DNA of 62,925 nucleotides, counting the filler, from Coriobacteriales bacterium (GTDB lineage: Bacteria; Actinomycetota; Coriobacteriia; Coriobacteriales; UBA8131), in NCBI GenBank assembly GCA_031263105.1. It is 5 parts of 5 records of this genome, joined end to end, with 100 filler letters (N's around TTAATTAATTAA, not from the genome) between each part and the next. Parts side by side here need not be neighbours in the genome. Positions count along the whole stretch, not along the records: positions 48,768 to 56,448 come from JAISGJ010000086.1; 4 more parts are not named here. The stretch is one strand, 5' to 3'. Under the pieces are notes generated by a model. That model ran no database searches. It worked only from the letters and a program-made list of their open reading frames with translations, and was not told where the DNA came from. This document shows, one piece after another, positions 128 to 56,448 of the stretch. The first letter of the stretch is position 1. Every line of letters starts with the position of its first letter. A program made the position numbers and the translations under genes.

Positions 128-274
128 TGCAACCCCGCTCCCGTCCGTCGCGACCGTCGGCAACCTGCCCCGCCCCTGCGGGCCGTTTTCCGGTATAATC
201 CCAAGAAAGCCTAAAACTGTCACGGGCTCTGCTCCGTCGGGGCCCGTTGTTGTCTGTAGTATTGAAAACCGGAA

Positions 275-2149
275 ATGAGGAGTGCTATGAGGACCCTTCA
301 TATCATGGATACGACCATCCGCGACGCGCACCAGAGCCTTTGGGCGACGCGGATGCAGCTCGGTGACATGCTCCCCATCCTGCCCAAGATGGACAAGGTC
401 GGGTACTGGGCGATCGAGGCCTGGGGCGGTGCGACCTTCGACACCTGCCTGCGGTTCCTCGACGAGAACCCTTGGGAGCGCCTGCGCGCCATCAAGAAGC
501 ACTGCCCCAAGACCCCGCTCTCCATGCTCGTGCGCGGACAGAACCTCGTCGGCTACCACCATTACTCGCGCGACATAGTCGACCGCTTCATCAAGGCCTC
601 CCACCGCAACGGCATCGAGGTCTTCCGTGTGTTCGACGCGCTGAACGACATCCGCAACGTCAAGGACTGCGCCGAGGCCATCATCGACGCCGATGCGCAC
701 TTCGAGGGCGCCATTTCCTACACCATGAGCCCCGTCCACACGCTCGACAGCTTCATCGAGTACGGCATGCTGCTCAAGGAGCTGGGCGCGCACTCCATCT
801 GCATCAAGGACATGGCGGGCATGCTCACCCCCTATCGCACGGAGCGCATGGTCAAGGCCTTCCGCGAGCAGATCGGCCTGCCGGTGCACCTGCACTGCCA
901 CTATGTCGGCGGCATGGCGCCTGCCAACTACCTCAAGGCCGCCGAGGCGGGCGCCGCCATCGTGGACACCGCGTCGGCGCCTCTGGCCTTCGGCAACTCG
1001 CAGCCGGCCGTCGAGATGATCGTCGCGGCCCTCAAGGAGAGCGGCTACGACACCGGGCTGAACCTCGATCTGCTGTTCGAGATAGCGCAGTACTGGGAGG
1101 GCGTGCGCAAGCGCGGCCACTACAAGCGCGGCGTCAGCGCCCTTATCCACATGCAGGTCTACAGCCATCAGGTGCCCGGCGGCATGATGAGCAACCTCGT
1201 CAGCCAGCTCGAGATACAGAAGGCGTCCAACCGCCTGCCCGACGTCATGGAGGAGATACCGCGCGTGCGCGCCGAGGTCGGCTACCCGCCGCTCGTCACG
1301 CCGCTCTCGCAGATAGTCGGCACGCAGGCGGTGCTCAACGTGCTCACGGGCAAGCGCTGGAGCGTCGTGTCGACGGAGATGAAGGACTACATCGCGGGCT
1401 CCTACGGCAAGGCGCCCGGCCCGCTCGACAAGGAGATCGTGAAGAAGGTCCTGGGCGACACGGTGCCGCTCGACCCCGACACGCCGCCGAGCTCGCTGGT
1501 GACCACGACCTATGACGAGGTCGCGGCCGAGGCCGGCGATTTGGCCTCCAGCGAGGAGGACGTGATCATGTGGGCGCTGTTCCCCAACGAGGCGCGCACC
1601 TACCTCTCCCGGCATCGCACCTCGGAGAAGACCGCGTTTCTTCTTGCAGAGGAGTCTTCCAACATCAAGGAGGAGCAGAACGTGGACATCAACCAGATCA
1701 AGGAACTGATACGTGTCGTCGAGGACTCCGATGTCGGCGAGGTCACGGTCGAGGAGGCGGGCATGAAGATAACCGTCCGGGCCTCGGGGCAGTCCGGCGA
1801 GCCGTCCGCCTCTGCTGCGGGCGAGCCCCTTGCCGCCGTCAGCACGGTGCCCGACGCCCCCGCCCCTGCCGACCCCGCCCCGGCCTCCGACCGTCCCGGC
1901 ACCTGGGTGCCCGTCACCTCGCCGATGGTCGGCACCTTCTATGCGGCGCCCGCGCCCGATGCCCCGCCCTTCGTCCAGGCAGGCGACGAGGTCACCGCCG
2001 GGCAGACCCTGTGCATCGTCGAGGCGATGAAGCTCATGAACGAGATAAGCTCCGAGCAGATGGGGACCGTCCGCGAGGTCTGCGTCGATAACGCCATGCC
2101 CGTCGAGTACAACACGGTGCTCTTCTACCTCGAACCGACGCTGGACTAG
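275..2149 (+). CDS. Pyruvate carboxylase subunit B / oxaloacetate decarboxylase alpha-type carboxyltransferase fused to a complete AccB-like biotin carboxyl carrier domain
   Basis: DTTIRDAHQSL, EAWGGATFD, IKDMAG, HLHCH, QVPGGM and GYPPLVTPLSQIVG motifs; C-terminal SPMVGTFY and EAMKLMN biotinylation motif; start may be 287. Confidence 0.9.
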   Translation: MRSAMRTLHIMDTTIRDAHQSLWATRMQLGDMLPILPKMDKVGYWAIEAWGGATFDTCLRFLDENPWERLRAIKKHCPKTPLSMLVRGQNLVGYHHYSRDIVDRFIKASHRNGIEVFRVFDALNDIRNVKDCAEAIIDADAHFEGAISYTMSPVHTLDSFIEYGMLLKELGAHSICIKDMAGMLTPYRTERMVKAFREQIGLPVHLHCHYVGGMAPANYLKAAEAGAAIVDTASAPLAFGNSQPAVEMIVAALKESGYDTGLNLDLLFEIAQYWEGVRKRGHYKRGVSALIHMQVYSHQVPGGMMSNLVSQLEIQKASNRLPDVMEEIPRVRAEVGYPPLVTPLSQIVGTQAVLNVLTGKRWSVVSTEMKDYIAGSYGKAPGPLDKEIVKKVLGDTVPLDPDTPPSSLVTTTYDEVAAEAGDLASSEEDVIMWALFPNEARTYLSRHRTSEKTAFLLAEESSNIKEEQNVDINQIKELIRVVEDSDVGEVTVEEAGMKITVRASGQSGEPSASAAGEPLAAVSTVPDAPAPADPAPASDRPGTWVPVTSPMVGTFYAAPAPDAPPFVQAGDEVTAGQTLCIVEAMKLMNEISSEQMGTVREVCVDNAMPVEYNTVLFYLEPTLD

Positions 2150-2224
2150 GGAGACGATGGCCAATGCCTGTGCGCCGGAAGGCGGTATGCAATGAGTAGC
2201 CAGCGCCCCTCTGGCGGTGGCGTC

Positions 2225-3598
2225 ATGTTCGACAAGGTGCTCGTCGCCAACCGGGGAGAGGTCGCCGTGCGCATCGTGCGTGCCCTGCGCGAGCTCGGGG
2301 TGGCAAGCGTCGTCGTGTACTCGGACGCGGACAAGGACACGCTCGCGGTGCGCCTCGCCGACGAGAGCGTCTGCATCGGGCCCGCAAGCCCTGCGCAGTC
2401 CTACCTCTCGATACCCGCCATCATCGGCGCCGCCAACTCCCGTGGCGCGCAGGCGGTCCATCCCGGCTACGGCTTCCTTGCGGAGAACGCGGAGTTCGCC
2501 CGTGCCTGTGCGGCAAACGGCTTGGTGTTCATCGGGCCTACGCCCGAGGCCATAGAGCTGATGGGGGACAAGAACGTCGCGCGCGAGACCATGCGGCGCA
2601 TCGGCGTGCCGACCATCCCCGGCTCAGACGGCGTGCTCGCCAGCGTCGAGGAGGCGGCCCGCTTCGCCGAGGAGGTCTCCTACCCGGTGCTCATCAAGGC
2701 GAGCGCCGGCGGCGGCGGCAAGGGCATGCGCGTCGTCGAGGACGCCGGGCAGCTGGAGGGCGCCTTCCTCGCAGCGCGCGCCGAAGCGGCGGCGGCCTTC
2801 GCCAACGACGCGGTCTATCTCGAGAAGCACCTGCTGCGCCCCCGCCATATCGAGATACAGGTCCTCGCGGACACCCACGGCAATGCCCTGCACCTCTGCG
2901 AGCGCGACTGCTCCATCCAGCGCCGCCACCAGAAGCTGCTGGAGGAGGCCCCGTCCGTCGCCGTCGACGACGCGCTGCGCGAGCGCATGGGGGCCGCTGC
3001 GCTGAAGGCCGTCGCCGAGGTCTCCTACCTCGGGGCGGGCACCATCGAGTTCTTGCTCGACGAGCAGGGCCGCTTCTACTTCATGGAGATGAACACGCGC
3101 ATACAGGTCGAGCATCCCGTCACCGAGGCCGTCACGGGCACCGACCTCGTCAAGGAGCAGATACGCATCGCCGCAGGCGAGCCCATCAGCTTCGCCTCCT
3201 GCCCTCCGACCTCGCCCCACGGCCACGCCATCGAGCTGCGCATCAACGCGGAGGACCCCCTCAACAGCTTTTGGCCGAGTCCCGGCACGGTGACGGCGCT
3301 TGCGCTGCCGGGCGGGCCGGGCGTGCGCGTGGACACGCACCTCTTCGAGGGCTACCGCATCCCTCCGAACTACGACTCGCTCATCGCCAAGCTCATCGTC
3401 TGGGGCGCGACGCGCGAGGAGGCCCTTGCACGCGGGCGCCGTGCCCTCGACGAGCTGGTGATAGAGGGGATACGGACGACGGCCTCCTTCCATCGCAGCG
3501 TGCTCGACGAGGAGGACTTCATCGCGGGGTCGGTCCACACCGACTACATCCCGACGCATGAGGACGCCCTTCTGACGAAAGGACAGGGACATGGATGA
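2225..3598 (+). CDS. accC: Biotin carboxylase
   Basis: MFDKVLVANRGE start; HPGYGFLAEN, GGGGKGMR, ERDCSIQRRHQK, FMEMNTRIQVEHPVTE, YDSLIAKL. Confidence 0.95.
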   Translation: MFDKVLVANRGEVAVRIVRALRELGVASVVVYSDADKDTLAVRLADESVCIGPASPAQSYLSIPAIIGAANSRGAQAVHPGYGFLAENAEFARACAANGLVFIGPTPEAIELMGDKNVARETMRRIGVPTIPGSDGVLASVEEAARFAEEVSYPVLIKASAGGGGKGMRVVEDAGQLEGAFLAARAEAAAAFANDAVYLEKHLLRPRHIEIQVLADTHGNALHLCERDCSIQRRHQKLLEEAPSVAVDDALRERMGAAALKAVAEVSYLGAGTIEFLLDEQGRFYFMEMNTRIQVEHPVTEAVTGTDLVKEQIRIAAGEPISFASCPPTSPHGHAIELRINAEDPLNSFWPSPGTVTALALPGGPGVRVDTHLFEGYRIPPNYDSLIAKLIVWGATREEALARGRRALDELVIEGIRTTASFHRSVLDEEDFIAGSVHTDYIPTHEDALLTKGQGHG

Positions 3599-3944
3599 AA
3601 GACTCGTGAACGAAGGGCTGTCCATCGCGCCGGGCGTGGTCGAGACCATCGTCTCGCTTGCGGCCGAGCAGGTCGACGGCGTCGCGCAGGTCAACGCTCC
3701 CGGGCTCTCTCGCGGCCTCCTTACGGTGCTGGGCAGGAGGCATCCCGGCCAGGGCGTCGTCATCATGGCCGACGAGGACGGCGCCATCACCGTCGCCGTG
3801 CGCGTGCGCGTCTATTACGGCTACCGCCTGCAAGAGGTCGCCGAGCAGATACGCCACGCGGTCGCAGGCACGCTCTCCGGCCAGATAGGCATCGAGGTGG
3901 CGGCCGTCGATGTCTTCGTCGACGGCATCCAGTTCCCCGAGTAG
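3591..3944 (+). CDS. Asp23/Gls24 family envelope stress response protein
   Basis: 117 aa; IAPGVVETIVSLAA..VDGVA and V.YG..L.EVA..I patterns, VDVFVDGI; usual position between accC and nusB. Confidence 0.85.
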   Translation: MDERLVNEGLSIAPGVVETIVSLAAEQVDGVAQVNAPGLSRGLLTVLGRRHPGQGVVIMADEDGAITVAVRVRVYYGYRLQEVAEQIRHAVAGTLSGQIGIEVAAVDVFVDGIQFPE

Positions 3945-3951
3945 CCCGCCC

Positions 3952-4470
3952 ATGTCAAGCCCTCACGGACAGCACCAGGTGCGCAGCGCCGCGCGCAGGA
4001 AGGCCCTCCAGATCCTCTTTCAGAGCGAGATATGCGGGCGTGACCCTGCGGGCATCCTCGACGAGGGCCTGTGCATCGAGGAGGTAGGGGTTCCCTGCGA
4101 GTTCACCCGCCTGCTGTTGGAGGGCGTCACCACGCATGCCGAGCGGATAGACGCGCTCATCGTCCATACCTCCGAGCACTGGTCGCTCAGGCGCATGCCG
4201 CTCGTCGACCGGAGCATACTGCGCCTTGCGACCTTCGAGATGCTGTGCCTGGACGACATCCCCTACAGCGTCTCCATCAACGAGGCCATCGAGCTGGCAA
4301 AGAACTTCGGAGGGGAGGACGAGTCCGCGCGCTTCGTCAACGGGGTGCTCGGCAGGATCGCGGGCAGCCTGGGCGAGCAGGAGGCGGAGAAGGCGCAGGA
4401 CATGGGAGGCGCGGCAGCGACGGGCGGAAAGGCCCGCTCGCGGAGAGAGAAGAGGGCTGCACATGGATGA
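3952..4470 (+). CDS. nusB: Transcription antitermination factor NusB
   Basis: RSAARRKALQILFQ, WSLRRMPLVDRSILRLA, SINEAIELAK, FVNGVL. Confidence 0.95.
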   Translation: MSSPHGQHQVRSAARRKALQILFQSEICGRDPAGILDEGLCIEEVGVPCEFTRLLLEGVTTHAERIDALIVHTSEHWSLRRMPLVDRSILRLATFEMLCLDDIPYSVSINEAIELAKNFGGEDESARFVNGVLGRIAGSLGEQEAEKAQDMGGAAATGGKARSRREKRAAHG

Positions 4471-4639
4471 GCGGAGCTCGTATGCCCATACGCGGCAACG
4501 GCTTGAGGAGATAGTCGCGCAGGTCAAGGCGAAGGACGTCCCGCTGGAGAAGAGCCTCGACCTGTACGAGGAGGCGCTGCGCCTGGGGAGCGCCTGCGCG
4601 GAGACGATCGACCATACCGATTTCTCGGCCGAGGAATGA
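4463..4639 (+). CDS. xseB: Exodeoxyribonuclease VII small subunit
   Basis: 58 aa with RLEEIVAQV..KDVPLEKSLDLYEEALRL pattern; overlaps nusB stop and dxs start. Confidence 0.85.
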   Translation: MDERSSYAHTRQRLEEIVAQVKAKDVPLEKSLDLYEEALRLGSACAETIDHTDFSAEE

Positions 4640-6852
4640 CCTCGCGAGGGGCGACCATGTATGAGAGCATAGCTGCGAACCTGCCCGAGGGCAGCGCTGG
4701 GAGCGGCACTGGGAGCAGCGTCGAGGACGGCGCGGACATACCGGGGAGCAGTGCGGGCGCGCCGGACGCCCTGCCCTGCTCCGCCGAGGTCAGGAGCCTG
4801 GACGTCCCTCGGCTCAACGAGGTGGCGGCGCAGCTCCGCCGCCGCCTTATCGAGGTCACCGCCGTCAACGGCGGCCATCTCGCCTCAAGTCTGGGGGCGG
4901 TCGAGCTCATCCTTGCGCTGCATCGCGTCTACGACTTTCCCACCGACCGCCTGGTGTTCGACGTCGGGCATCAGGCATATGCGCACAAGCTCATAACGGG
5001 GCGGGCGGACGCCTTCGACACCCTGCGCACCTACGGCGGCCTGAGCGGGTTCCCCCGCAGGAAGGAGAGCAGCTTCGACGCCCATGACGCCGGCCATGCC
5101 TCGGACTCGCTTTCCATCGCGCTCGGCCTCGCGCTCGCCCGCGACATAAACGGCAGCACCGAGGACATCGTCGCCCTCATCGGCGACGCGGCGCTTTCGG
5201 GCGGCATGGCCTTCGAGGCCCTCAACCAGACAGGGCAGCTCGGCATCGACATGACCATCCTCTTGAACGACAACGAGATGAGCATCTCGCGCAGCGTCGG
5301 CGCACTCTCGCTCTATCTCGGCAAGGCCCGCACGAGCAGGCCCTACACGGCCCTGCGCGACACCGTCGAGGGCCGCGTCGGCCGCGTCGGCCGCCTCGGC
5401 CGCTTCCTGGTGAGCGCCGGCGAGGCCGCCAAGGGCTCCTTCAAGAAGCTCATGGTCCCCGGCACCCTTTTCGAGGACATGGGCATCACGTACATCGGTC
5501 CCATCGACGGGCACAACATCGAGGCGGTCAGCGAGGCACTGCGCCTCTCGCGGAAGGCGTCCGGCCCCGTCCTCGTCCACGCCGTGACCCAGAAAGGCCA
5601 CGGCTACGCCCCCGCCGAGAGGCAGCCCGAGGCCTTCCACGGCCTCTCCCGCCCCTCCCCTGTGGCTGCGACTTCCGCTGTGTCTCCTACCTCTGCTGCG
5701 GCATCGACATTCCCCTCCGTCGGAGGGGTGCCCCGAAGGGGCGGGGTGGTTCTCCCAGCCGACGACTCCTTAGCGGTTGCAACGGAATCGGATACGGCCT
5801 TAACTGCCCCCGCCCCCGCCCCCTCTCCCAAGCCGACCTACACCTCGGTCTTCTCGCAGGCCCTGCTTGCCGAGGCGCGGCTCGACCCGGACATCGTCGC
5901 CATCACCGCAGCGATGACGGACGGCACCGGCCTCGCGCCCTTCAAGGAGGCCTTCGAGCGGCGCTTCTTCGACGTGGGGATAGCCGAGGAGCACGCGGTC
6001 GCGCTGGCAGGGGGGCTTGCCTTGGGAGGGAAGCTGCCCGTCGTCGCCATCTACTCGACCTTCCTGCAGCGGGCCCTCGACCAGGCCGTCATCGATGTGG
6101 CCCTGCAGGAGCAGCACGTGGTGTTCGCCGTCGACCGCGCGGGCCTTGTCGGCGAGGACGGCTCCACGCACCACGGGCTGTTCGACCTCGCCTATCTCCG
6201 CTCCATCCCCCATATGCGCATCATCGCCCCTGCCGACGCCGCCCAGATGAGGGACGCCCTGCATACCGCCCTTGCCTTGGACGGGCCTGTGGCGCTGCGC
6301 TATCCCCGGGGCGAGCCTGTCGGCGGCACCGCCGACGAGGAGGGGCGCAGGCCCCGGGCGTTGCCGGTGGGACGTGCGACGCGGCTTCGGGAGGGAGGCG
6401 ACCTCAGCATCCTGGCGGTCGGCCGTATGGTCGCCCAGGCCCGTGACGCCGCCGCGCTCCTCGCCACCAAGGGCGTCGAGGCGGCGGTCTACAACATGCT
6501 CTGGGTCAAGCCCATCGACGAGGGCGTCGTCCGTGACGCCGCCCGCGCCCCGCTCGTCGTGACCTTGGAGGAGGGGACCGTCGTCGGCGGCTTCGGCACG
6601 GCGGTGCTCGAGGCGCTTGCGTGCGGCTCCGTCGCAGGCACCTGCCCGCAGACGCGCGTGCTGGTCATGGGGGTCCCGGACAGCTTCGTCGGCCATGGGA
6701 GCGTCGAGCAGCTGTTCGACGAGCTCGGCCTGACGCCGCCACAGATAGCGGAGAGAATACTCCATGCCCTCGGGCCGGAAGGCAGGAGGCGCTCCAGCGG
6801 ACTGGTTTCGGGCGAAGCTGCGACACAGCGCGAGGGCCCCGCACTGCAATGA
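4636..6852 (+). CDS. dxs: 1-deoxy-D-xylulose-5-phosphate synthase with a ~60-aa linker insertion
   Basis: GGHLASSLG, FDVGHQAYAHK, GDAALSGGMAFEALN..NDNEMSI, DVGIAEEHAV, IYSTFLQRALDQ, DRAGLVGEDGSTHHG; start may be 4657. Confidence 0.95.
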   Translation: MTSRGATMYESIAANLPEGSAGSGTGSSVEDGADIPGSSAGAPDALPCSAEVRSLDVPRLNEVAAQLRRRLIEVTAVNGGHLASSLGAVELILALHRVYDFPTDRLVFDVGHQAYAHKLITGRADAFDTLRTYGGLSGFPRRKESSFDAHDAGHASDSLSIALGLALARDINGSTEDIVALIGDAALSGGMAFEALNQTGQLGIDMTILLNDNEMSISRSVGALSLYLGKARTSRPYTALRDTVEGRVGRVGRLGRFLVSAGEAAKGSFKKLMVPGTLFEDMGITYIGPIDGHNIEAVSEALRLSRKASGPVLVHAVTQKGHGYAPAERQPEAFHGLSRPSPVAATSAVSPTSAAASTFPSVGGVPRRGGVVLPADDSLAVATESDTALTAPAPAPSPKPTYTSVFSQALLAEARLDPDIVAITAAMTDGTGLAPFKEAFERRFFDVGIAEEHAVALAGGLALGGKLPVVAIYSTFLQRALDQAVIDVALQEQHVVFAVDRAGLVGEDGSTHHGLFDLAYLRSIPHMRIIAPADAAQMRDALHTALALDGPVALRYPRGEPVGGTADEEGRRPRALPVGRATRLREGGDLSILAVGRMVAQARDAAALLATKGVEAAVYNMLWVKPIDEGVVRDAARAPLVVTLEEGTVVGGFGTAVLEALACGSVAGTCPQTRVLVMGVPDSFVGHGSVEQLFDELGLTPPQIAERILHALGPEGRRRSSGLVSGEAATQREGPALQ
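5712..5749. repeat. REP-like double-hairpin element lying in frame inside dxs
   Basis: CCCCTCC-GTC-GGAGGGG followed by GCCCC-GAA-GGGGC and GGGGTGG. Confidence 0.6.
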
Positions 6853-48767: not shown

Positions 48768-49095
48768 AGCCTGCCGAGGGATCTTCGACCGCACGAGCGG
48801 TCGACTGCGGCCAGAAAGCGCCTCGGCCCACGGTCGGCTGCTTCGCGTTCCGTGGGCCTGTCGGCCCGTCCTCGCTGAAAACGCGGTGCGTTTTCCGGGC
48901 GCTCGGACCCTAGGATTCCACGGCACGCTCGGAATGACAGTGGGGGACGGACTGACAGTGGGGGACGGACTGACAGTGGGGGACGGACTGACAGTGGGGG
49001 CTCGGACTGACAGTGGGGGACGGACTGACAGTGGGGGCTCGGACTGACAGTGGGGACGGGAGGCCGGGGCGACAGTGGGGACTGACAGTGGGGAA
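48768..49095. repeat. Palindromic element (left end cut by contig edge) plus 18/19-bp tandem array
   Basis: Shares internal modules with 46162-46482; about 8 GACAGTGGGGG(A/CT)CGGACT units. Confidence 0.85.
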
Positions 49096-49124
49096 CCTGG
49101 GGTGACAGGGCGTGGACGGTAGCT

Positions 49125-49178
49125 GTCGGTATCGGCGGTATCGGCGGTATCTGCGGTATCTGCGGTATCGGCGGTATC
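49125..49178. repeat. 9-bp tandem repeat x6 just upstream of the peptide promoter
   Basis: [G/T]GCGGTATC units. Confidence 0.85.
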
Positions 49179-49253
49179 CGTGATTCTGCTCTCGCTAGGC
49201 GCACAAAGCTGGTATGATGGGGGCATGATGACAAGAGCAAGGAGGTGCTGAAG

Positions 49254-49319
49254 ATGTCGAAGCTCCCCTATAGTTCGCCGACGATCAGGGAACTGCCGCC
49301 TGTGCCGATGTCCGCCTGA
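49254..49319 (+). CDS. Putative RiPP precursor peptide MSKLPYSSPTIRELPPVPMSA (28 aa to 49340 if UGA is read as Sec)
   Basis: Extended -10 TGGTATGAT at 49210-18; AAGGAGGT RBS; YxxPxI RRE-binding leader motif; directly upstream of radical SAM and PqqD genes. Confidence 0.7.
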   Translation: MSKLPYSSPTIRELPPVPMSA

Positions 49320-49346
49320 GTGCGCGTTCGTCGTCGGTAGCCGTCC

Positions 49347-50294
49347 ATGCACTGCCAGAGGCCTCAGACAGCAGATGTCCGGGGGAACCCCGTCCGGGCA
49401 GGCATTGTGCCGCCCGGCAGCAGCCTGCCGCTGATGGATGCGCCTCGGCATATCAACTGGAACATCACGTACCGCTGCCCCCAGGACTGCGAGCACTGCT
49501 ACAGCCGTGCCCCCAGGGAGCAACCGGAACTCGACCTCGACGGCAAGCTGGCGGTCGCACGCAACATCGTCGCCAGCCGCGTGCCCTCCGTGAACCTCGG
49601 CGGCGGCGAGCCACGGGTCTCGCCCGACACCCTCCCGATAATCAGGTACCTCTCCGAGAGCGGCGTGCGCGTGAGCCTGAGCAGCAACGGCTTCGGCGTC
49701 ACGGCGGCCGAGGCGGATGCGCTCAAGGATGCGGGGCTGCACTCGGTCATCCTCTCCCTCGACTTCGCCAGCGCCGCCCGGCACGACGCCTTCAGGCGCC
49801 GTCCCGGCAGCTTCGACGCCTGCCTTGAGGCCGCCGCGCTCTTCGTCGAGCGGGGGGTGGCGCTCCTCGTCTCGACGGTGCTGACCTCCCAGAACCTCGA
49901 CGAACTCGACGGCATCGTCGAGGTGGCCGAGCGCATCGGCGCAAGCGGCGTCGAGCTCAAGCGCCTGCGCCTCGCCGGCAACGCGCGGGGCAGGGCCGAC
50001 CTCGCGTTGAGCCGCGAGCAGGAGCGCACGCTGTACGACGTGTTCGCAGGGCTGCGCGAGAGTGCGGCGATACCTCTCACGCTGGTGTACGGAGCCGAGC
50101 CCAGGGCCGGAACGGAGGACGGCTGCCCCTGCGGCCGCACGGCGCTCGCCCTGCTCGACAACGGGGACATGGCCCCCTGCGTCTACAGCCCCACGGTCAT
50201 CGGCAACGCCCTGACCGAGAACATCGACGACGTATGGCGCGACTCGCCGCATCTGGAGGCGCTGCGCGAGAACTTCCACTGTCAGGGAACGTGA
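49347..50294 (+). CDS. Radical SAM enzyme (MftC/PqqE-like) with a short SPASM/Twitch domain
   Basis: DAPRHINWNITYRCPQDCEHCYS (CX3CX2C), NLGGGEP, SSNG, SLD....HDAFR..GSF, CPCG..GDMAPC..IGN..VW; start could be 49407 or 49434. Confidence 0.9.
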   Translation: MHCQRPQTADVRGNPVRAGIVPPGSSLPLMDAPRHINWNITYRCPQDCEHCYSRAPREQPELDLDGKLAVARNIVASRVPSVNLGGGEPRVSPDTLPIIRYLSESGVRVSLSSNGFGVTAAEADALKDAGLHSVILSLDFASAARHDAFRRRPGSFDACLEAAALFVERGVALLVSTVLTSQNLDELDGIVEVAERIGASGVELKRLRLAGNARGRADLALSREQERTLYDVFAGLRESAAIPLTLVYGAEPRAGTEDGCPCGRTALALLDNGDMAPCVYSPTVIGNALTENIDDVWRDSPHLEALRENFHCQGT

Positions 50295-50352
50295 GGGGGC
50301 ACTGGGGACCCTAGGGGACGCTCAGTGCTTCCGCGAAGGAACGGAGGCGAGA

Positions 50353-50769
50353 ATGGCTGGATACCGGCTCGCAGACGGCGTGATGATGCAGCGCAACGCC
50401 CGTGTGCCCAAGGGCGGCAGCGTCCGCGACATGGTCGAGGCGGCATTGGCGGGCGACGGCCCGGACGGCACGCCGGATGCCTCGGGCACCGCGCCCGACA
50501 CCACCCCGGGCACCGCCGTCGCCGCCGCCGCGCCCGCCCCCTTGGATCCGGACGCCGTCTACGTGGCGCTCTCCTCGGGCGGCAGGCATCACGTCCTCAA
50601 CCTCTCGGCCGCCTTTATCCTAGAGGCCCTGCTTGCAGGCGAGGCGCCGGCGGCGATCGAGGGACAGCTCACCCGGGCCTTCGACGTCAGCGGCGAACAG
50701 GCGGCGCTCGACATCAAGGCCACGGTTCGCTCCCTTGTCGCCGACGGCTTCATAGTGCTGCGGGACTGA
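50353..50769 (+). CDS. PqqD family peptide chaperone (RiPP recognition element) with a Pro/Ala/Thr insertion
   Basis: LNLSAAFILEAL..I..QL...FDVS.EQA..DI...V..L...GFI pattern; GGAGG RBS. Confidence 0.8.
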   Translation: MAGYRLADGVMMQRNARVPKGGSVRDMVEAALAGDGPDGTPDASGTAPDTTPGTAVAAAAPAPLDPDAVYVALSSGGRHHVLNLSAAFILEALLAGEAPAAIEGQLTRAFDVSGEQAALDIKATVRSLVADGFIVLRD

Positions 50770-50927
50770 GGGCAGGAACCGACGGGCAGAGACGGCGGAG
50801 CAGGAGCGACCGCCAGCGCCGACGAGCGTGAACGGCCCGTAGGATTCCCCAAAGAACAGGCGGGAATCTTGGCAGTATTGGCAAACTACGAGAACCGCAT
50901 GTCTGACATACTGAACTATGGGTTCAG

Positions 50928-51066
50928 CCTCCCACTGTCATTCCGAGCCTGCCGAGGAATCTTCGACCGCGCCAGCGGTCGACCGCAGGTCGAAGGATCT
51001 TTCAACCTACCGTTGGTCGCTTCGCGACCAAGGATTCCTCGGCAGGCTCGGAATGACAGTGGGAGG
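50928..51066. repeat. Palindromic REP/MITE-like element
   Basis: 34-bp perfect TIR CCTCCCACTGTCATTCCGAGCCTGCCGAGGAATC. Confidence 0.9.
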
Positions 51067-51142
51067 TGGGCTGTGGGGCGTGCGGCATCCTCGACAGCCG
51101 CCACAACCGAATCGACGGCCGGAGCGGACTGGGAGGTCTGAC

Positions 51143-51901
51143 ATGAAAAGGCTCGAAGGCAAGACGGCGCTGGTCACAGGCGCAGGCAGCGGCATCGGCA
51201 GGGCGACGGCCATCCGTTTTGCGAAGGAGGGGGCCAAGGTCGTCCTTGCGACCCGCACGGCCTCGCATGGCGAGGAGACCCTGGGCGAGATCGAGGCAGC
51301 AGGCGGCACGGCGCTGTTCGTGCAGGCCGACGGCCGCAGGAAGGACGAGGTCCTTGCACTCGTCAAGGAGGCCCGCTCGGAACTGGGCTCGCTCGACATC
51401 CTCGTGAACGCGGCAGGCGTCCTGGTGCACAAGCCCTTCCTCGAGCACACCGACGAGGACTTCGCGCTCGTCAGCGAGACGAACTTCCTGGCGTATGTCT
51501 GGGCGATGCAGACGGCGATACCGATCATGAGGGAGCAGGGCGGCGGGTCGATCGTCAACGTGGCCTCGATATCGACCGCCCGCCCGGAGCTCAACGCCTA
51601 TTACTACGGCGCCTTCAAAGCAGCCATCGCCAACCTCTCCGTCAACGTCGCCAAGGAGTTCGCTGCGGAGAGGATCCGCGTGAACGTCGTCTGCCCGGGG
51701 CCCGTCGCCACGGCCATGACGCCCCCGCAGCTGCAGGACCCGGAGGTCCTCAAGGCCTTCGTCGAGTACTGGAACCCCATCGGCCGCATCGGCGAGCCCG
51801 ACGACGTCGCCAACGTCATCCTGCTTCTGGCATCGGACGAGGCCGCCTGGATCACCGGCTCGTCCTACACGGTGGACGGCGGCGCCTGCCTCGCCGGATA
51901 G
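51143..51901 (+). CDS. SDR family NAD(P)-dependent oxidoreductase
   Basis: TGAGSGIG, VNAAG, YGAFK (YxxxK), IRVNVVCPG, ITG...VDGG. Confidence 0.93.
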   Translation: MKRLEGKTALVTGAGSGIGRATAIRFAKEGAKVVLATRTASHGEETLGEIEAAGGTALFVQADGRRKDEVLALVKEARSELGSLDILVNAAGVLVHKPFLEHTDEDFALVSETNFLAYVWAMQTAIPIMREQGGGSIVNVASISTARPELNAYYYGAFKAAIANLSVNVAKEFAAERIRVNVVCPGPVATAMTPPQLQDPEVLKAFVEYWNPIGRIGEPDDVANVILLLASDEAAWITGSSYTVDGGACLAG

Positions 51902-51914
51902 GCGGCCGCCTCCG

Positions 51915-52205
51915 ATGCCGTGCTACCAGTGCTCCCATTGCGGCAAATGCGGGATGTTCTCCTATTCCATGGAGCTCGCCTGCGGAACCTGTGGGACCCC
52001 CCTTGCCCCAGGCCTGTCCCACTGCGAGGCCTGCGGGGCCTCGGCGCGCGATGCCAGGCACAGCGCGACGCTGAAGCTCAGGGACACCGAGTTCGTCATC
52101 AACCCGACCATACGGGCCCTGGCGGACGAAGGGGCGCCCGGCGACGAAGAGGCGCCCTCAGCTGGTGCGGCGGGCGGCCTTCAGGTGCGGAACCAGCAGG
52201 CATGA
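51915..52205 (+). CDS. Small Cys-rich zinc-ribbon / Fe-S protein
   Basis: CYQCSHCGKC, CGTC, CEAC. Confidence 0.65.
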   Translation: MPCYQCSHCGKCGMFSYSMELACGTCGTPLAPGLSHCEACGASARDARHSATLKLRDTEFVINPTIRALADEGAPGDEEAPSAGAAGGLQVRNQQA

Positions 52206-53726
52206 GAGCAGCAGCATCAGGTGCGTGTTCACGTCGGTGGACGTGAGGTCGTCCCCCAGCAGCTCGGAGAGGCGCTCCAGACGATAGATGACGGTGTTGC
52301 GATGCAGGCCCATGGCCCGCGCCGTGGCGTTGGCGTTCTTGCCATGGATCAGATAGCTGTGCAGCGTCTCGACCAGCGCACGCCCCTTGTCGCCCTCGCG
52401 CAGCCATTGGCGCAGGACCTTGGGATGGCAGAGGCTGGAGACGTTCACGGTCGATTCCAGGGCGCCGACCAGATAGGGCACGTAGTGCTCCTGGAAGCAC
52501 AGCACGCGCTCCTTCGCATTGCCCTCGCCGAACTCCAGCGCCGCCTTTGCCTGCAGGTATGCCTCCCGTATCTGTAGGAAGCCCGTATGGACCATGCTGA
52601 TGCCGCAGTACAGGTCGAGGCTCTCGCACAGGCGCTCCAGCTCGCAGAACTCCTTGGAGTGTATCGGGCTCTCCTCGTCGCGCAGCACGGCGAGCACCCC
52701 TTGCTCGTAGGGGAAGGCAAGGGCCGACGGGAAGAGGCTCTGCACCCGCATGGTCTGCACGCTGTGCAGGCTGTCGTCGACCGAGAAGGTGTCCTTTGCC
52801 CTGAGGTAGACCGCCTGGTACGAATCGGCGATCTTCCAGTTCCGCAGCTCGAGCGAGTAGGTCAGGGCGCCTCGCTCCACGAGGTAGCCCTGCAGGATGC
52901 GGTCGGCGTAGTAGCCGACGTGGTCGGCCAGGTGCTGCTTGCCGATCTCGGAAAGCAGGACATGCTTCATCAGGCCCTGCAGCAACTTGACCAGGGAGAT
53001 CTGCCCCAAGGTGATGGGCGAGGCGAGGTCCGACATCCCGAGCATCGCAAAGGGCTTGCCCTCGTGGTGCAAGGGTGCGATAAGGTGCCGGGCGTCACGG
53101 TACTGGGAGACCTTCTCCAGGAAGAACGGCTCCTCCGTGCCCCAGAGCTCCTGGGTGAACAGGTGGCGCTGCTGCTTGGACAGGTTCTCCAGACGCGCGT
53201 ATCCGTGATGCAGGAGGTCCCCCCAGATGGATCCGGAGACGTCGTCGGGCAGGTCCCCCGCCCGCATGACGACGGTCTGCGAGGTGTCGACAAGGGCTAT
53301 CGCATTGTTCAGCACGGATGCCGCCTTGTCGAAGACCACCTGCAGGCTCCCTTGGCCGACGGTGGTCTTGAGCACGTCCTCCTGCCATGCGGCATAGGTC
53401 TCGAAGACGGACTGCATGCACATGAACAGTTCGACGGGGTCGTGCCCGGACGCCACACGGATGACCTTCCAATGCGGCGGCGGCGCCGTCCCTCTCGCCC
53501 CCTCACTGTCCTTGGGGCCCACCAGGACCATCGACTGCCCCTGGCCGAGGTCGGGCACCGCAGCCAGGTCCTTGTCCAACACAAGATAGATAAAGGCGGG
53601 GTCGAACGAGAAACCGGGGCGGTACAGGCGCGCACCGCGCACGTCGAGGTCCGTCGAGGCGGGCGCCGTTATCTCGGGGGAATACTCGGCAAGCTCGTCA
53701 AAAACGATGTGCGCGTTGAGTTTCAT
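52158..53726 (-). CDS. PucR/CdaR family transcriptional regulator
   Basis: C-terminal HTH TARAMGLHRNTVIYRLERL; CGIS..AYLQA region. Confidence 0.88.
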   Translation of the reverse strand: MKLNAHIVFDELAEYSPEITAPASTDLDVRGARLYRPGFSFDPAFIYLVLDKDLAAVPDLGQGQSMVLVGPKDSEGARGTAPPPHWKVIRVASGHDPVELFMCMQSVFETYAAWQEDVLKTTVGQGSLQVVFDKAASVLNNAIALVDTSQTVVMRAGDLPDDVSGSIWGDLLHHGYARLENLSKQQRHLFTQELWGTEEPFFLEKVSQYRDARHLIAPLHHEGKPFAMLGMSDLASPITLGQISLVKLLQGLMKHVLLSEIGKQHLADHVGYYADRILQGYLVERGALTYSLELRNWKIADSYQAVYLRAKDTFSVDDSLHSVQTMRVQSLFPSALAFPYEQGVLAVLRDEESPIHSKEFCELERLCESLDLYCGISMVHTGFLQIREAYLQAKAALEFGEGNAKERVLCFQEHYVPYLVGALESTVNVSSLCHPKVLRQWLREGDKGRALVETLHSYLIHGKNANATARAMGLHRNTVIYRLERLSELLGDDLTSTDVNTHLMLLLSCLLVPHLKAARRTS

Positions 53727-53825
53727 CGGCCTATCCCCTCGACGACGCAGCACTTCCTTCGGTCAAAACTGCACAAAGCACTATAGCAAACTTCACTTTG
53801 TCGCACCATAGGCAAAGAGGCCCCG

Positions 53826-53897
53826 ACGGCCATACAATCACAAGTATCGGGACAAACTGCATAAACCTGCAACATAGGGAGATGATTGTATGGCCGT
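53826..53897. promoter_or_regulatory. 15-bp perfect inverted repeat in a divergent promoter region
   Basis: ACGGCCATACAATCA (53826-40) / TGATTGTATGGCCGT (53883-97); each arm contains TACAAT. Confidence 0.55.
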
Positions 53898-54094
53898 GGA
53901 CGCACGATGAGCCCGGTCGACCGCGAGGGGAAGTGCCGATTCGTTGCTTGTGCGCCACGTGGCATGCACTGAACGGGTCGATGCCTCCCAAGGGGAAGCG
54001 GTCGGCCGGGCTCGCCTGTTTGTTCGGTTGTTGGTTGTGGTTGTTGGTTGTTCTTTGACCGGTCACGTTCAAGGCACCAAGGAGAGGAGTCCCC

Positions 54095-55318
54095 ATGTTC
54101 AAGACAAAGAACAAGTTCATCATCAAGCTGGCGATCCTGTGTCTCGCCCTGCAGGACGTCGGCGCAGGTGCGGCCACGCCTGCCTTGGGCGCCATCCAGG
54201 CCGCGTTCCCGGAGGTCGATCCGACGCTGATCCAGATGATCTCCACCATGCCCTCGCTCACCGTCGTCATCTTCGGCCTGCTGTATGCGCCGATGTCCAA
54301 GGTGATGCCCAAGCGTGCCATCATGTACATCGCCGCCGTCACCTTCATCATCGGCGGCGTCGCACCGGCCTTCCTGAACGACATCTACCCCATCCTGTTC
54401 TTCCGGGCCCTGGTCGGCGTCGGCGTCGGCCTGCTCTACCCCATGGCGAACGACCTTGCAGTCGACTTCTTCGAGGGCGGCGAGAGGGCCAAGACGATCG
54501 GCCAGGCCTTCGGCATCGGCATGATCGGCGGCGCCTTCTTCCAGCTGATCGGCGGCACGCTCTCCGACATCGACTGGCATTACACCTTCTTCGCCTATTT
54601 CGTCTCCGTCCTGTTCTTCGCGTTCCCGGTGTTCTTCCTGCCTGAGCCCAAGAAGAAGGAAGAAGTCGTCAGGGGCACCGCGCAGGAGAAGGCCAAGATG
54701 CCCGTCACGCAGTTCGTCAGCTGCATCATCAACGCCGTCTGCTGCTGCCTGTTCATCACCTTGATCACCAACGCCGCCATGGTCATCGCCATGGAGGGCT
54801 TCGGGTCGGGCGCTGAGATCGGCCTGGCGTTCTCGATCATGACGCTGGCTGCGTTCGTTGCGGGCTTTGCCTACGGCCCCTCGCAGAAGATCCTCAGGAA
54901 GGGCAGCATGCTCCCAGCCCCCATACTGCTGGCGCTGGGCCTGTTCGTGATGTCCACGGCCCATAGCATGGGGATCGTCTTCACTGCCATGATCCTCTTC
55001 GGCCTCGGCATGGGCTACACCGGCTCCAAGTTCTTCGCCAAGTCCACCGAGATCGTCCCGTTTGCCGTCTCTGCCCTGGCGCTGTCCATGATGACGGCCT
55101 TCAACGGCTTCGGCCAGCTGGTGTCCGCCCCGGTCATGAACTGGCTCGTGACCGTGACCGGAATCGGCATGGGCCGTCCGGCGTTGCAGTTCGCAGCCAT
55201 CGCCATGATAGGGCTCGGCGTGATAATGGTCGTCTTCGACGTCATGACCCCGAAGATCCCCGAAAGCGAGAAGCCCGAGGGCACCGAGGGCGCCATGGAC
55301 GCCGTGCAGAACTCCTAG
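54095..55318 (+). CDS. MFS transporter
   Basis: About 12 TM segments; FRALVGVGVG, IDWHYTF..FFLPEP; GAGGAG RBS. Confidence 0.9.
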   Translation: MFKTKNKFIIKLAILCLALQDVGAGAATPALGAIQAAFPEVDPTLIQMISTMPSLTVVIFGLLYAPMSKVMPKRAIMYIAAVTFIIGGVAPAFLNDIYPILFFRALVGVGVGLLYPMANDLAVDFFEGGERAKTIGQAFGIGMIGGAFFQLIGGTLSDIDWHYTFFAYFVSVLFFAFPVFFLPEPKKKEEVVRGTAQEKAKMPVTQFVSCIINAVCCCLFITLITNAAMVIAMEGFGSGAEIGLAFSIMTLAAFVAGFAYGPSQKILRKGSMLPAPILLALGLFVMSTAHSMGIVFTAMILFGLGMGYTGSKFFAKSTEIVPFAVSALALSMMTAFNGFGQLVSAPVMNWLVTVTGIGMGRPALQFAAIAMIGLGVIMVVFDVMTPKIPESEKPEGTEGAMDAVQNS

Positions 55319-55467
55319 ACAAGTGCCGATCCGTCGTGTGGGCGCCCGCGACCGCTTTCCGGGCGGCCCCGTCACGACATCGGCCTGCACAAGAAGGACG
55401 GGGGCCAAGGATTCTCCGAAGCCCCCCGTCCGAACCATAAGAACGCCACGAGAGGAGCATCGGGCTT

Positions 55468-56283
55468 ATGAAAGACATGCTTGAGGGAAAGGTCGCCCTG
55501 ATAACCGGCGCCACCAGCGGCATGGGCGAGGCCACGGCCAGACTGTTCGCCCGCGAGGGCGCCAAGGTCGTCATCGGCGGCCGCAGCGCAGACAAGGGCA
55601 GACGTATCGCCGCAGAGATCGAGGAGGCCGGTGGCGTGGCACGCTTCTATGCCTCCTTGGATGTGACCGAGCAGGACTCGGTCGACGCCGTCGTCGACGC
55701 GACCTTGCGGGAGTTCGGGCAGATCGACATCCTCGCCACCTACGCCGGGCAGACCTTCGACCACGACGGGCTCGACCCCTGGGAGCAGTACGACAGGACC
55801 ATGGACGCCAACATGACCGGCACCTACCGCTGCGTCCTTGCGGTGCTCCCCCACATGAAGGAGCGCGAATCCGGCAACATCATCATCTGCTCGTCCAACG
55901 GGGCGTTCAATCCCACCACGCCGGCCTACGACTACCACATGGCCAAAGGCGCATGCGAGTCCCTGACGGTGAACCTTGCGACCGAGCTTGCCCCGCTCGG
56001 CATCCGTGTGAACTGCATCAAGCCGGGCCCGATCGTCACCCCGTTCTGGGACGAACTCATCGAGGAGGGGGAAGGGCGCAGGGCGCTGTTTGCGGGCATC
56101 GCCAAACGGGAGGTGCCGATGGAGCGCGTGGGGACCCCCGAGGACATCGCCGGCCCTGCGCTGTTCTTCGCTTCGGGGCTCTCGGCCTACGTCACAGGGC
56201 TCTGCCTGTATGTCGCAGGCGGCATGGGATACATCTACGCGCACGGGCAGTCGTTCTTGATGTCGGGCGAAGCAGGGATCTGA
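55468..56283 (+). CDS. SDR family NAD(P)-dependent oxidoreductase
   Basis: TGATSGMG, YHMAK (YxxxK), GIRVNCIKPG, RVGTPEDIA. Confidence 0.92.
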   Translation: MKDMLEGKVALITGATSGMGEATARLFAREGAKVVIGGRSADKGRRIAAEIEEAGGVARFYASLDVTEQDSVDAVVDATLREFGQIDILATYAGQTFDHDGLDPWEQYDRTMDANMTGTYRCVLAVLPHMKERESGNIIICSSNGAFNPTTPAYDYHMAKGACESLTVNLATELAPLGIRVNCIKPGPIVTPFWDELIEEGEGRRALFAGIAKREVPMERVGTPEDIAGPALFFASGLSAYVTGLCLYVAGGMGYIYAHGQSFLMSGEAGI

Positions 56284-56284
56284 G

Positions 56285-56448
56285 ATGGCAGGCACGCTTG
56301 ATTTCTACGAGCGGCACAAGGGGCAGTCGACCTGGCAGGACGGCGACCTCACCGTCACGCGCACGACCGTCTGGTCGGGCCCCGGCTGCCACGACGGCTG
56401 CGGCGTGCTGTACTACACCAGGGACGGCGCGCTCGTGAAGGTCGAGGG
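56285..56448 (+). CDS. Third molybdopterin oxidoreductase paralog, N-terminal fragment cut by contig end
   Basis: WQDGDLTVTRTTVWSGPGCHDGCGVLYY, very similar to the protein at 19645. Confidence 0.85.

Follow-up and report, generated by a model that had tools for sequence, protein, structure and literature searches.

A probable radical SAM-PqqD cassette with a 21-residue precursor peptide in a Coriobacteriales genome

Positions 49254-50769 of a 62,925-nucleotide stretch of Coriobacteriales DNA (GenBank assembly GCA_031263105.1), here called the window, carry a 21-codon open reading frame (ORF), a radical S-adenosylmethionine (SAM) gene and a PqqD gene, in that order. We conclude that these genes probably form a three-gene cassette for a ribosomally synthesized, post-translationally modified peptide (RiPP), in which the ORF encodes a genuine precursor that is bound by PqqD and modified by the radical SAM enzyme. 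An earlier note on this DNA, made from the sequence alone, had proposed an undescribed radical-SAM-modified peptide, and that proposal gains support from a conserved micro-ORF, a constant PqqD partner, a co-folded complex and a TIGRFAM assignment check in which no curated family claimed the enzyme, the PqqD or the peptide. The combination of a radical SAM enzyme, a RiPP recognition element (RRE) and a small peptide is a well-known kind of system, and new peptide chemistry comes mainly from radical SAM maturases. To our knowledge, known cross-links offer no obvious precedent for a core free of Cys and Trp that carries an invariant Met, and the product of such a core may show a new reaction.

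The precursor gene, identified by reading the sequence and by pattern search, runs on the plus strand from the ATG at 49254 to the TGA at 49319 and encodes the 21-residue peptide MSKLPYSSPTIRELPPVPMSA, as the earlier note had read it. The recognition motif YSSPTI occupies residues 6-11, and a Met that proves to be invariant is residue 19, within a C-terminal Met-Ser-Ala. Also as described before, the peptide contains neither Cys nor Trp and has neither the MftA core (no C-terminal Gly-Val-Tyr) nor the PqqA core (no ExxxY); no NCBIfam model matches it. The strong ribosome-binding site claimed for the gene can be read as the Shine-Dalgarno sequence AAGGAGGT at 49239-49246 (plus strand), 7 nt before the ATG, and an AGGAG or GGAGG core precedes the start in the upstream strings of 7 of 10 other peptide ORFs of the clade described below. 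A possible extended -10 element, TGGTATGAT, lies at 49210-49218 on the same strand, with no recognisable -35.

Every locus with an enzyme of this clade was examined; they reduce to 12 distinct ones: the window, L097 (also L002 and L177), L096 (identical to L176), L098 (identical to L178), L016, L017, L018, L019, L020, L022, L023 and L042. The search for a conserved peptide beside homologous enzymes, which had been set beforehand as a refutation test, found a micro-ORF of 19-26 codons that fits the strict pattern [YF]xxPxI-x7-M-x-x-stop, on the same strand as the enzyme, in nine of the 12. Together these nine loci encode ten distinct peptides, namely that of the window and those of L097 (MAKKIVYKKPRIIKVSMTTMIS), L096 (MKDKIEYIAPEIKEVTLIGMAS), L018 (MKKIKYKKPKITVQGTHVMPS), L020 (MKKFQYASPTIKLVKSGAMTA), L022 (MQATKIKLRRYSAPKICNLKASPMTE), L023 (MTKRAPYQPPTIRRLKWPPMPY), L016 (MIDFVEPTIEEIEDVAMTA) and L017, where two copies stand in tandem (MISFVEPMINEIMDVAMTS and MISFVEPMINEIMDIAMQA). 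Pro, Ile and Met are invariant in all ten, the aromatic residue is Tyr or Phe, and the Met falls exactly 13 residues past that aromatic residue and is followed by two residues and the stop. The C-terminal residue varies (A, S, Y or E), and Cys is absent from eight of the ten.

When all six frames of 175 loci were scanned (1.08 Mb; 64,080 stop-ended frames), the strict pattern occurred 11 times, always in clade loci and on the enzyme's strand; these 11 matches count two loci twice, since L001 is the window's locus refetched and L002 is L097. No match was found in more than 160 GeoRSP, MftC or other loci. In the 2.9-Mb genome of origin (108,691 stop-ended frames) the ORF of the window is the single strict match. 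The L020 and L022 peptides were found after the pattern had been fixed, and both fit it to the residue. The position of the ORF changes while its sequence holds: it lies just upstream of the enzyme gene in seven loci, just upstream of the PqqD gene in L022 and L023, and at the head of an operon 3.9 kb upstream of the enzyme in L020. The loci span about 30-66% G+C, across which the amino acids of the peptide are kept. A changing position with a constant sequence, together with this spread in base composition, further points to a real gene as judged from the sequences.

Gene callers miss the micro-ORFs of this clade. Of seven peptides of 21-26 residues that were looked up, the window's exact sequence included, none is present among 15 billion collected proteins (the two 19-residue peptides were too short for the look-up), and only a 64-residue form from L098 is on record, as a 'hypothetical protein'. 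The clade is thus a concrete case of precursors never seen by annotation.

The radical SAM gene, called at 49407-50294 on the plus strand with a GTG start, encodes a 295-residue maturase with a truncated, Twitch-like SPASM domain; its ORF spans 49347-50294, with alternative ATG starts at 49347 and at 49434, the latter suggested by homologues. Pfam recognizes both the Radical_SAM domain (PF04055; 76.8 bits, cut-off 29.5) and the SPASM domain (26.7 bits, cut-off 21.5, covering profile positions 1-58 of 67). The CxxxCxxC motif (C24, C28 and C31) is kept in at least 90% of 21 aligned family members, and four C-terminal cysteines, C240, C242, C258 and C292, are invariant in all 21. Alignment with GeoRSP and MftC enzymes shows that the family is without the CxxCx5Cx3C block and the tail behind it: the enzyme ends three residues past a single Cys, and it carries a second such Cys within GCPCG, where GeoRSP enzymes read GSVCG. 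The seven-Cys SPASM motif that goes with two auxiliary clusters is not found in the enzyme. Because four Cys ligands suit one auxiliary cluster and the second half of SPASM is missing, we read the arrangement as Twitch-type, in agreement with the shortened SPASM/Twitch domain noted before. The AlphaFold2 (AF2) model of the enzyme is confident (predicted local distance difference test, pLDDT, 92.2; predicted template-modelling score, pTM, 0.90). Its best solved fold is SkfB (6efn; query-normalised template-modelling score, TMq, 0.80; E 3.7e-18), ahead of BlsE, SuiB and PqqE, and by sequence its best solved relative is PqqE (6c8v; 81.8 bits).

The PqqD gene at 50353-50769 (plus strand) encodes a stand-alone PqqD-type RRE of 138 residues. 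PF05402 reaches 31.6 bits against a cut-off of 23.4 and the predicted structure matches B1 and PqqD folds, which upholds the original annotation of the gene. A PqqD gene accompanies the enzyme in all ten loci having enough DNA, following it in nine and being fused to the C-terminus of the enzyme in L098; the family representatives P0040 and P0049 (404-405 residues) carry the same C-terminal fusion. The PqqDs of the clade are very divergent, with 19-30% identity to that of the window, and since a word search returned nothing beyond the window's own protein, the PqqD alignment was drawn from the loci alone. The window PqqD has a family-specific N-terminal extension. Its AF2 model (pLDDT 84.9) has a core of strand-strand-helix-helix-helix and most closely resembles lasso B1 proteins whose structures include YxxP leaders (6jx3, E 3.7e-4; 5v1u with a root-mean-square deviation of 1.4 Å over 66 columns), PqqD itself (5sxy) ranking seventh. 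The window's protein also has an insert of 30 residues rich in Ala, Pro, Gly and Thr at about residues 31-60 (50443-50535); it is absent from all nine orthologues, and residues 31-60 are modelled at a pLDDT of about 55-64.

Binding of the peptide by PqqD was approached by co-folding the L017 PqqD (108 residues, 10-row alignment) with the first L017 peptide copy (36 residues, 11-row alignment). The pair scores 0.73, and the best of three controls 0.02; the score mark is reached by 116 of 157 solved complexes and by 2 of 215 mismatched pairs, and is a rough guide where custom alignments are used. The runs share at least 91% of contacts, with a partner pLDDT of at least 59. The confident peptide contacts are residues 17-29, IMISFVEPMINEI, which form the conserved motif, while residues 30-36, the tail MDVAMTS that includes the Met, are not among them. 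The model supports a split of the peptide into a PqqD-bound recognition half and a free core. The co-fold that the earlier note had suggested was made with an orthologous pair, which passes its controls with the motif at the interface. The available text of one report describes YxxP as a characterised lasso recognition sequence and a W/Y/L-x-x-P/L/I class as common to the RREs FusE, McjB, PqqD and StsC (PMC12710340), and in the available part of another, Tyr or Trp is the main determinant of RRE choice (PMC13381572). The reading of YxxPxL/I as an RRE leader motif agrees with the class so described (PMC12710340).

No NCBIfam model reaches its cut-off for the enzyme or the PqqD. The enzyme scores 166.8 bits with GeoRSP (TIGR04303, cut-off 400), 127.3 with AhbD (500), 120.7 with MftC (TIGR03962, 265) and 89.6 with PqqE (TIGR02109, 381.35); the PqqD scores 36.7 bits with the lasso PqqD chaperone (NF033530, 70) and 14.6 with the PQQ (pyrroloquinoline quinone) PqqD (TIGR03859, 46). 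Six other clade members score 161.9-214.8 bits with the GeoRSP model. The description of the enzyme as MftC-like needs correcting in that GeoRSP is the nearest curated model (166.8 against 120.7 bits) and SkfB the nearest solved fold. Among 5.8 billion protein clusters searched by word index, 21 proteins reach 186-659 bits, and the one after them has 105. A FastTree phylogeny of 158 enzymes, which took in the word-search proteins and the enzymes of the fetched loci, places the family in one clade of 31 rows (Shimodaira-Hasegawa-like support 99), apart from a GeoRSP clade of Geobacteraceae and Nitrospirota and an MftC clade of Actinomycetota; because this tree was built quickly and contains a number of long branches, only this main split is used. 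When 1.84 billion representatives were searched with a profile, scores ran as a continuum from 430 to about 190 bits, with some 40 above 260 bits, most of them 290-320 residues long (the family range is 289-320), so the clade is small yet has more than 21 members, and its lower edge is not sharp.

Distribution of the family is sporadic. It occurs in 3 of 401 sampled genomes of the order to which the window genome belongs, and among 399 genomes of the class of a Clostridiaceae carrier there are one strong and one weak match; tblastn against plasmids at 1e-30 gave no match. A single-protein locus search of genome contigs returned 349 pattern matches, none of them a relative, and alignment-based scans then served as the locus finder.

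Several observations weigh against the conclusion that this is a precursor and its cassette. The loci in which the strict pattern was counted are also those whose peptides supplied it, which makes the count partly circular. Of 175 loci, 42 have a relaxed motif on the enzyme's strand and 39 have it on the opposite strand; given no strand enrichment, it was used as a finder and not as evidence. The pattern is not followed at three loci of the clade: in L098, a 64-residue ORF ending TYEPPKISRLSFGSSCTTA keeps the motif and has Ser/Cys at the Met position; L042, on a long branch, has a 96-residue ORF ending YAEPQMVVVVNSVANP / EYAEPQMVVVVNSVANP; and L019, a 1.4-kb contig on which the enzyme gene is cut, has no candidate peptide. 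The co-folded L017 peptide was read from an upstream GTG as 36 residues and is not the 21-residue peptide of the window, and because RRE-leader complexes have already been solved, the pass may come from likeness to them. A consensus scan of 48768-51200 gave no promoter-like and no terminator-like site, so that of the proposed extended -10 element what stands is a sequence visible to the eye. Finally, no protease or dedicated exporter was found, and the end product might be a secreted peptide, a signal or a cofactor precursor; the earlier note had suggested an intracellular cofactor or signal rather than an antibiotic.

Weighing these points, we infer that the peptide is translated and modified, and the following course can be proposed. 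The 21-residue peptide would be translated from its own strong ribosome-binding site, and its N-terminal half, LPYSSPTIREL, would lie as a strand in the PqqD cleft by analogy with lasso B1 and PqqD leaders. PqqD would then dock on the radical SAM enzyme, leaving the free C-terminal tail to reach the active site, where the fixed 13-residue distance from Tyr/Phe to Met may act as a ruler that places Met19 or an adjacent residue at the SAM cluster. A 5'-deoxyadenosyl radical would abstract hydrogen at that residue, and the single Twitch-type auxiliary Fe-S cluster, held by the four invariant Cys, would complete the reaction. In the available text on a PqqADE model, a connected region of nearly 40 Å leads from PqqD to the SAM cluster (PMC10906245); since 8-10 extended residues between motif and Met would span a similar distance of about 40 Å, the invariant spacing would be explained.

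That hydrogen is abstracted at the Met or at a residue next to it appears to us about as likely as not. Because the core contains no second conserved reactive residue and usually no Cys, a change to one residue, or of side chain to backbone, at or near the Met would be likelier than a thioether or a cross-link between side chains or to an aromatic residue. Candidate chemistries are epimerisation, desaturation, C-functionalisation, or cyclisation within the last three residues.

An alternative that we regard as improbable is that the cassette makes a peptide-derived redox cofactor or small molecule, in the manner of PQQ or mycofactocin, with Met-x-x modified and then cut out by a housekeeping protease. 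The nearest curated relatives of the enzyme are GeoRSP, MftC and PqqE, no exporter or immunity gene is conserved, two short-chain dehydrogenase/reductase (SDR) genes lie on the cassette's contig, C80, and the conserved residues stand, like those of MftA, at a fixed distance from the C-terminus. The precursor, at 19-26 residues, is also PqqA-sized, with a motif of the PqqD-bound class as the available text of PMC12710340 describes it. The gene content speaks otherwise, since none of ten loci has a peptidase or a PqqB/C-like or MftD/E/F-like gene and the SDR genes occur in the window's locus only. Nor is the variable C-terminal residue like the Tyr of MftA, and the sporadic distribution, with carriers in 3 of the order's 401 genomes, looks more like that of an accessory trait than of a cofactor that enzymes require.

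Two further explanations deny the window's peptide the role of working substrate. If the cassette were a thioether system of the sacti- or ranthipeptide kind, the Cys-free peptide of the window would have to be a copy that has decayed or is no substrate; SkfB, which heads the fold matches, is a Twitch sactisynthase, tail Cys residues do occur in L098 (..SSCTTA), in L022 (at +6) and in the more distant L179 (..ACIPCMSLE), and the MftC-like StsB proved to be a sactisynthase according to the available text of PMC10288494. We hold this to be very unlikely, given that eight of the ten pattern-fitting peptides have no Cys while the Met is invariant in all ten, that the window's genes are intact, and that its 2.9-Mb genome contains no second such peptide. 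The micro-ORF might instead be a regulatory leader peptide (an upstream ORF or attenuator) of the radical SAM and PqqD genes, with the true substrate elsewhere or not a peptide at all. It is indeed very short, in 7 of 10 loci it stands immediately upstream of the enzyme gene, and the supply of Met or SAM could in principle be sensed through a conserved Met. A leader peptide would hardly stand before PqqD (L022 and L023) or 3.9 kb upstream of the enzyme (L020), nor occur in two copies (L017); what is conserved from 30 to 66% G+C is amino acids and not RNA, window positions 48768-51200 hold no Rfam family and no terminator-like hairpin, and the motif is of the RRE-bound kind and was placed on PqqD in the co-fold. 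We therefore consider regulation of this sort highly improbable, and retain a precursor modified by the radical SAM enzyme as the preferred account.

The closest known systems include GeoRSP: its model scores best for the enzyme, its enzymes form a sister group in the tree, and the system, going by its name, includes a PqqD-type partner as here. True GeoRSP members differ in scoring 468-529 bits even as partial sequences, against 166.8 for the enzyme, and in keeping the full CxxCx5Cx3C half of SPASM and the tail. In 20 GeoRSP or near-GeoRSP loci that were inspected, no matching micro-ORF was found except MKKY[ML]KP[RQ]VVGSSNVHPC (L041 and L053; also L032), the GeoRSP loci of Geobacter and Nitrospirota hold no comparable micro-ORF even when read through stops, and the searched literature yielded no paper on GeoRSP. 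Mycofactocin resembles the cassette in its small peptide, PqqD-family chaperone and radical SAM enzyme of the same superfamily branch, and MftA, like the clade peptides, has its critical residues at a constant distance from the C-terminus. It differs in that true MftC enzymes score 512-536 bits against 120.7 here, where there is no Gly-Val-Tyr end, SPASM is truncated and MftD/E/F-like genes are missing. The PQQ system shares a tiny precursor, a stand-alone PqqD and a motif of the W/Y/L-x-x-P class as given in the available part of PMC12710340, whereas the present cassette has no Glu-x3-Tyr pair, one auxiliary cluster site instead of two, and no pqqB/C/F genes.

SkfB is described in the available text of PMC6231123 as a RiPP maturase whose Twitch domain holds one auxiliary cluster. 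It differs from the enzyme studied here in three respects: the RRE of SkfB is fused N-terminally, whereas here it is a separate protein, or a C-terminal fusion in some relatives; SkfB needs a donor Cys, which the window peptide does not have; and the two share 23% sequence identity. Membership of the sactipeptides or ranthipeptides was considered and rejected, as the window peptide has no donor Cys. Lasso B1 proteins provide the nearest folds to the PqqD (6jx3 and 5v1u) and its best NCBIfam match, and their motif is of the same kind as far as the available text of PMC13381572 goes. The score nonetheless remains below the 70-bit cut-off, the partner belongs to the radical SAM enzymes, contig C80 encodes neither a lasso cyclase of the Asn-synthetase-like type nor a B2 protease (the upstream side being cut by the contig end), and a 21-residue peptide is too short for a leader and a lasso core.

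In the literature searched, judged by titles, the openings of abstracts and passages of papers, we found no description of the half-SPASM clade, of the tiny precursor family or of the invariant C-terminal Met; accession lists and network files that supplement two surveys (PMC10288494 and PMC9062424) may hold members. The network in one of these surveys was limited to enzymes of 340-450 residues according to its available text (PMC9062424), a limit that leaves out a family of 289-320 residues. A broader reading, which we put forward tentatively and consider doubtful, would make the cassette the founding member of an undescribed RiPP class, in which a Twitch radical SAM enzyme and a stand-alone PqqD carry out unseen chemistry at an invariant Met three residues from the C-terminus of an uncleaved 19-26-residue peptide; it would also be the tip of a larger unannotated set of 18-26-residue [YF]xxPx[IV] precursors beside GeoRSP-/MftC-like enzymes, missed by gene callers. 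With three genes in 1.5 kb and a 21-residue substrate, the cassette is easy to test by co-expression and mass spectrometry.

Tiny peptides also lie beside neighbouring clades, which suggests that substrates of GeoRSP-like orphan systems could be assigned by the search used here. A near-identical 18-residue ORF, MKKY[ML]KP[RQ]VVGSSNVHPC, occurs downstream of the enzyme at L041 5089-5154, at L053 1914-1970 and in L032 (within 4897-5145). The enzymes beside it fall slightly short of the GeoRSP cut-off, with 361-369 bits for partial sequences, and the peptide is a candidate precursor of this GeoRSP-like branch. Enzyme clades intermediate between the family and GeoRSP are accompanied by ORFs of 18-19 codons with an N-terminal YxxPx[IVL] and different tails, such as MKRYRRPTIRRIARITTD, MRRYNKPFIRRVAHLHFT and MKRHYTSPYLRYLFHVRFI. 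They lie at L036 1983-2039, L067 1762-1818, L058 872-928, L074 236-304, L048 2668-2727, L054 (within 3516-3647) and L040 716-772, and are recognized by their recurrence among related loci, the relaxed motif being not enriched overall. In L179, which scores 208 bits to the family profile, the ORF MAKEKKSKFVSPKVRKVACIPCMSLE shares the minus strand with the enzyme gene and lies about 700 nt upstream of that gene; its motif is of the same kind and its tail has two Cys and a Met, which hints that Cys-bearing and Cys-free cores may coexist in the wider group.

Neighbours beyond the three-gene core vary among the ten loci compared, and only the core genes recur. A DegT-type aminotransferase lies near the core in L016 and L017, methyltransferases in L017, L020 and L022, and a major facilitator superfamily (MFS) transporter in L096 as well as in the window; no protease was found in any of these loci. 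The L020 operon (237-6012), seen at this single locus, begins with the peptide and continues with a 282-residue ORF, a nitrogenase-component-1-like protein (PF00148), a NifH-like ATPase (PF00142) and a 296-residue protein, after which come the radical SAM enzyme, PqqD and a methyltransferase. It is unusual for a nitrogenase-like reductase to stand next to a RiPP that bears a Met.

The genome is a metagenome-assembled genome (MAG) of 2.9 Mb, divided over 250 contigs, with 86% completeness and 6.5% contamination, and the window joins five of its contigs, separated by N spacers. The sequencing runs listed as containing this DNA include no RNA run; they are termite gut metagenomes from a single study, and one of them may be the source. 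Contig C80 corresponds to window positions 48768-56448 (7,681 bp). The cassette begins 486 nt from its start, and since the contig ends there, the view of the upstream neighbourhood is limited to that distance. The contig belongs to the MAG, because its G+C (0.655) agrees with that of the genome (0.645) and because it carries the dispersed palindromic repeat of the genome. Its other genes encode two SDRs (51143-51901 and 55468-56283), a PucR-type regulator and the MFS transporter (54095-55318). The absence of an adjacent protease or exporter, remarked on before, is confirmed within this 7.7-kb contig: it has no protease gene, and the MFS transporter gene lies 3.3 kb downstream of the cassette.

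The palindromic element, of about 133-150 nt, lies at 50924-51073, with arms at 50928-50971 and 51023-51066 that are 91% complementary. A partial second copy at 48768-48954 means that the cassette is flanked on both sides, in direct orientation. Flanking repeats were considered as a sign of mobility and rejected, as these 133-nt elements are dispersed genome-wide and are not a mark of the cassette: the genome gives 1005 BLAST alignment lines, with near-full copies on at least ten other contigs among the matches listed. The break in the assembly is probably due to this element, since contig C80 starts within one of its copies. Rfam, searched at E up to 1 over 48768-51200, gave no match, two tandem arrays upstream of the peptide gene included. 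One of these, at 49118-49187, consists of six overlapping copies of CGGTATC(G/T)G with a 9-nt period. The other, at 48931-49096, has eight copies of an 18-19-nt unit, GGACTGACAGTGGGGGAC, and the core of that unit, GACAGTGGG, is also the tip of the dispersed palindromic element.

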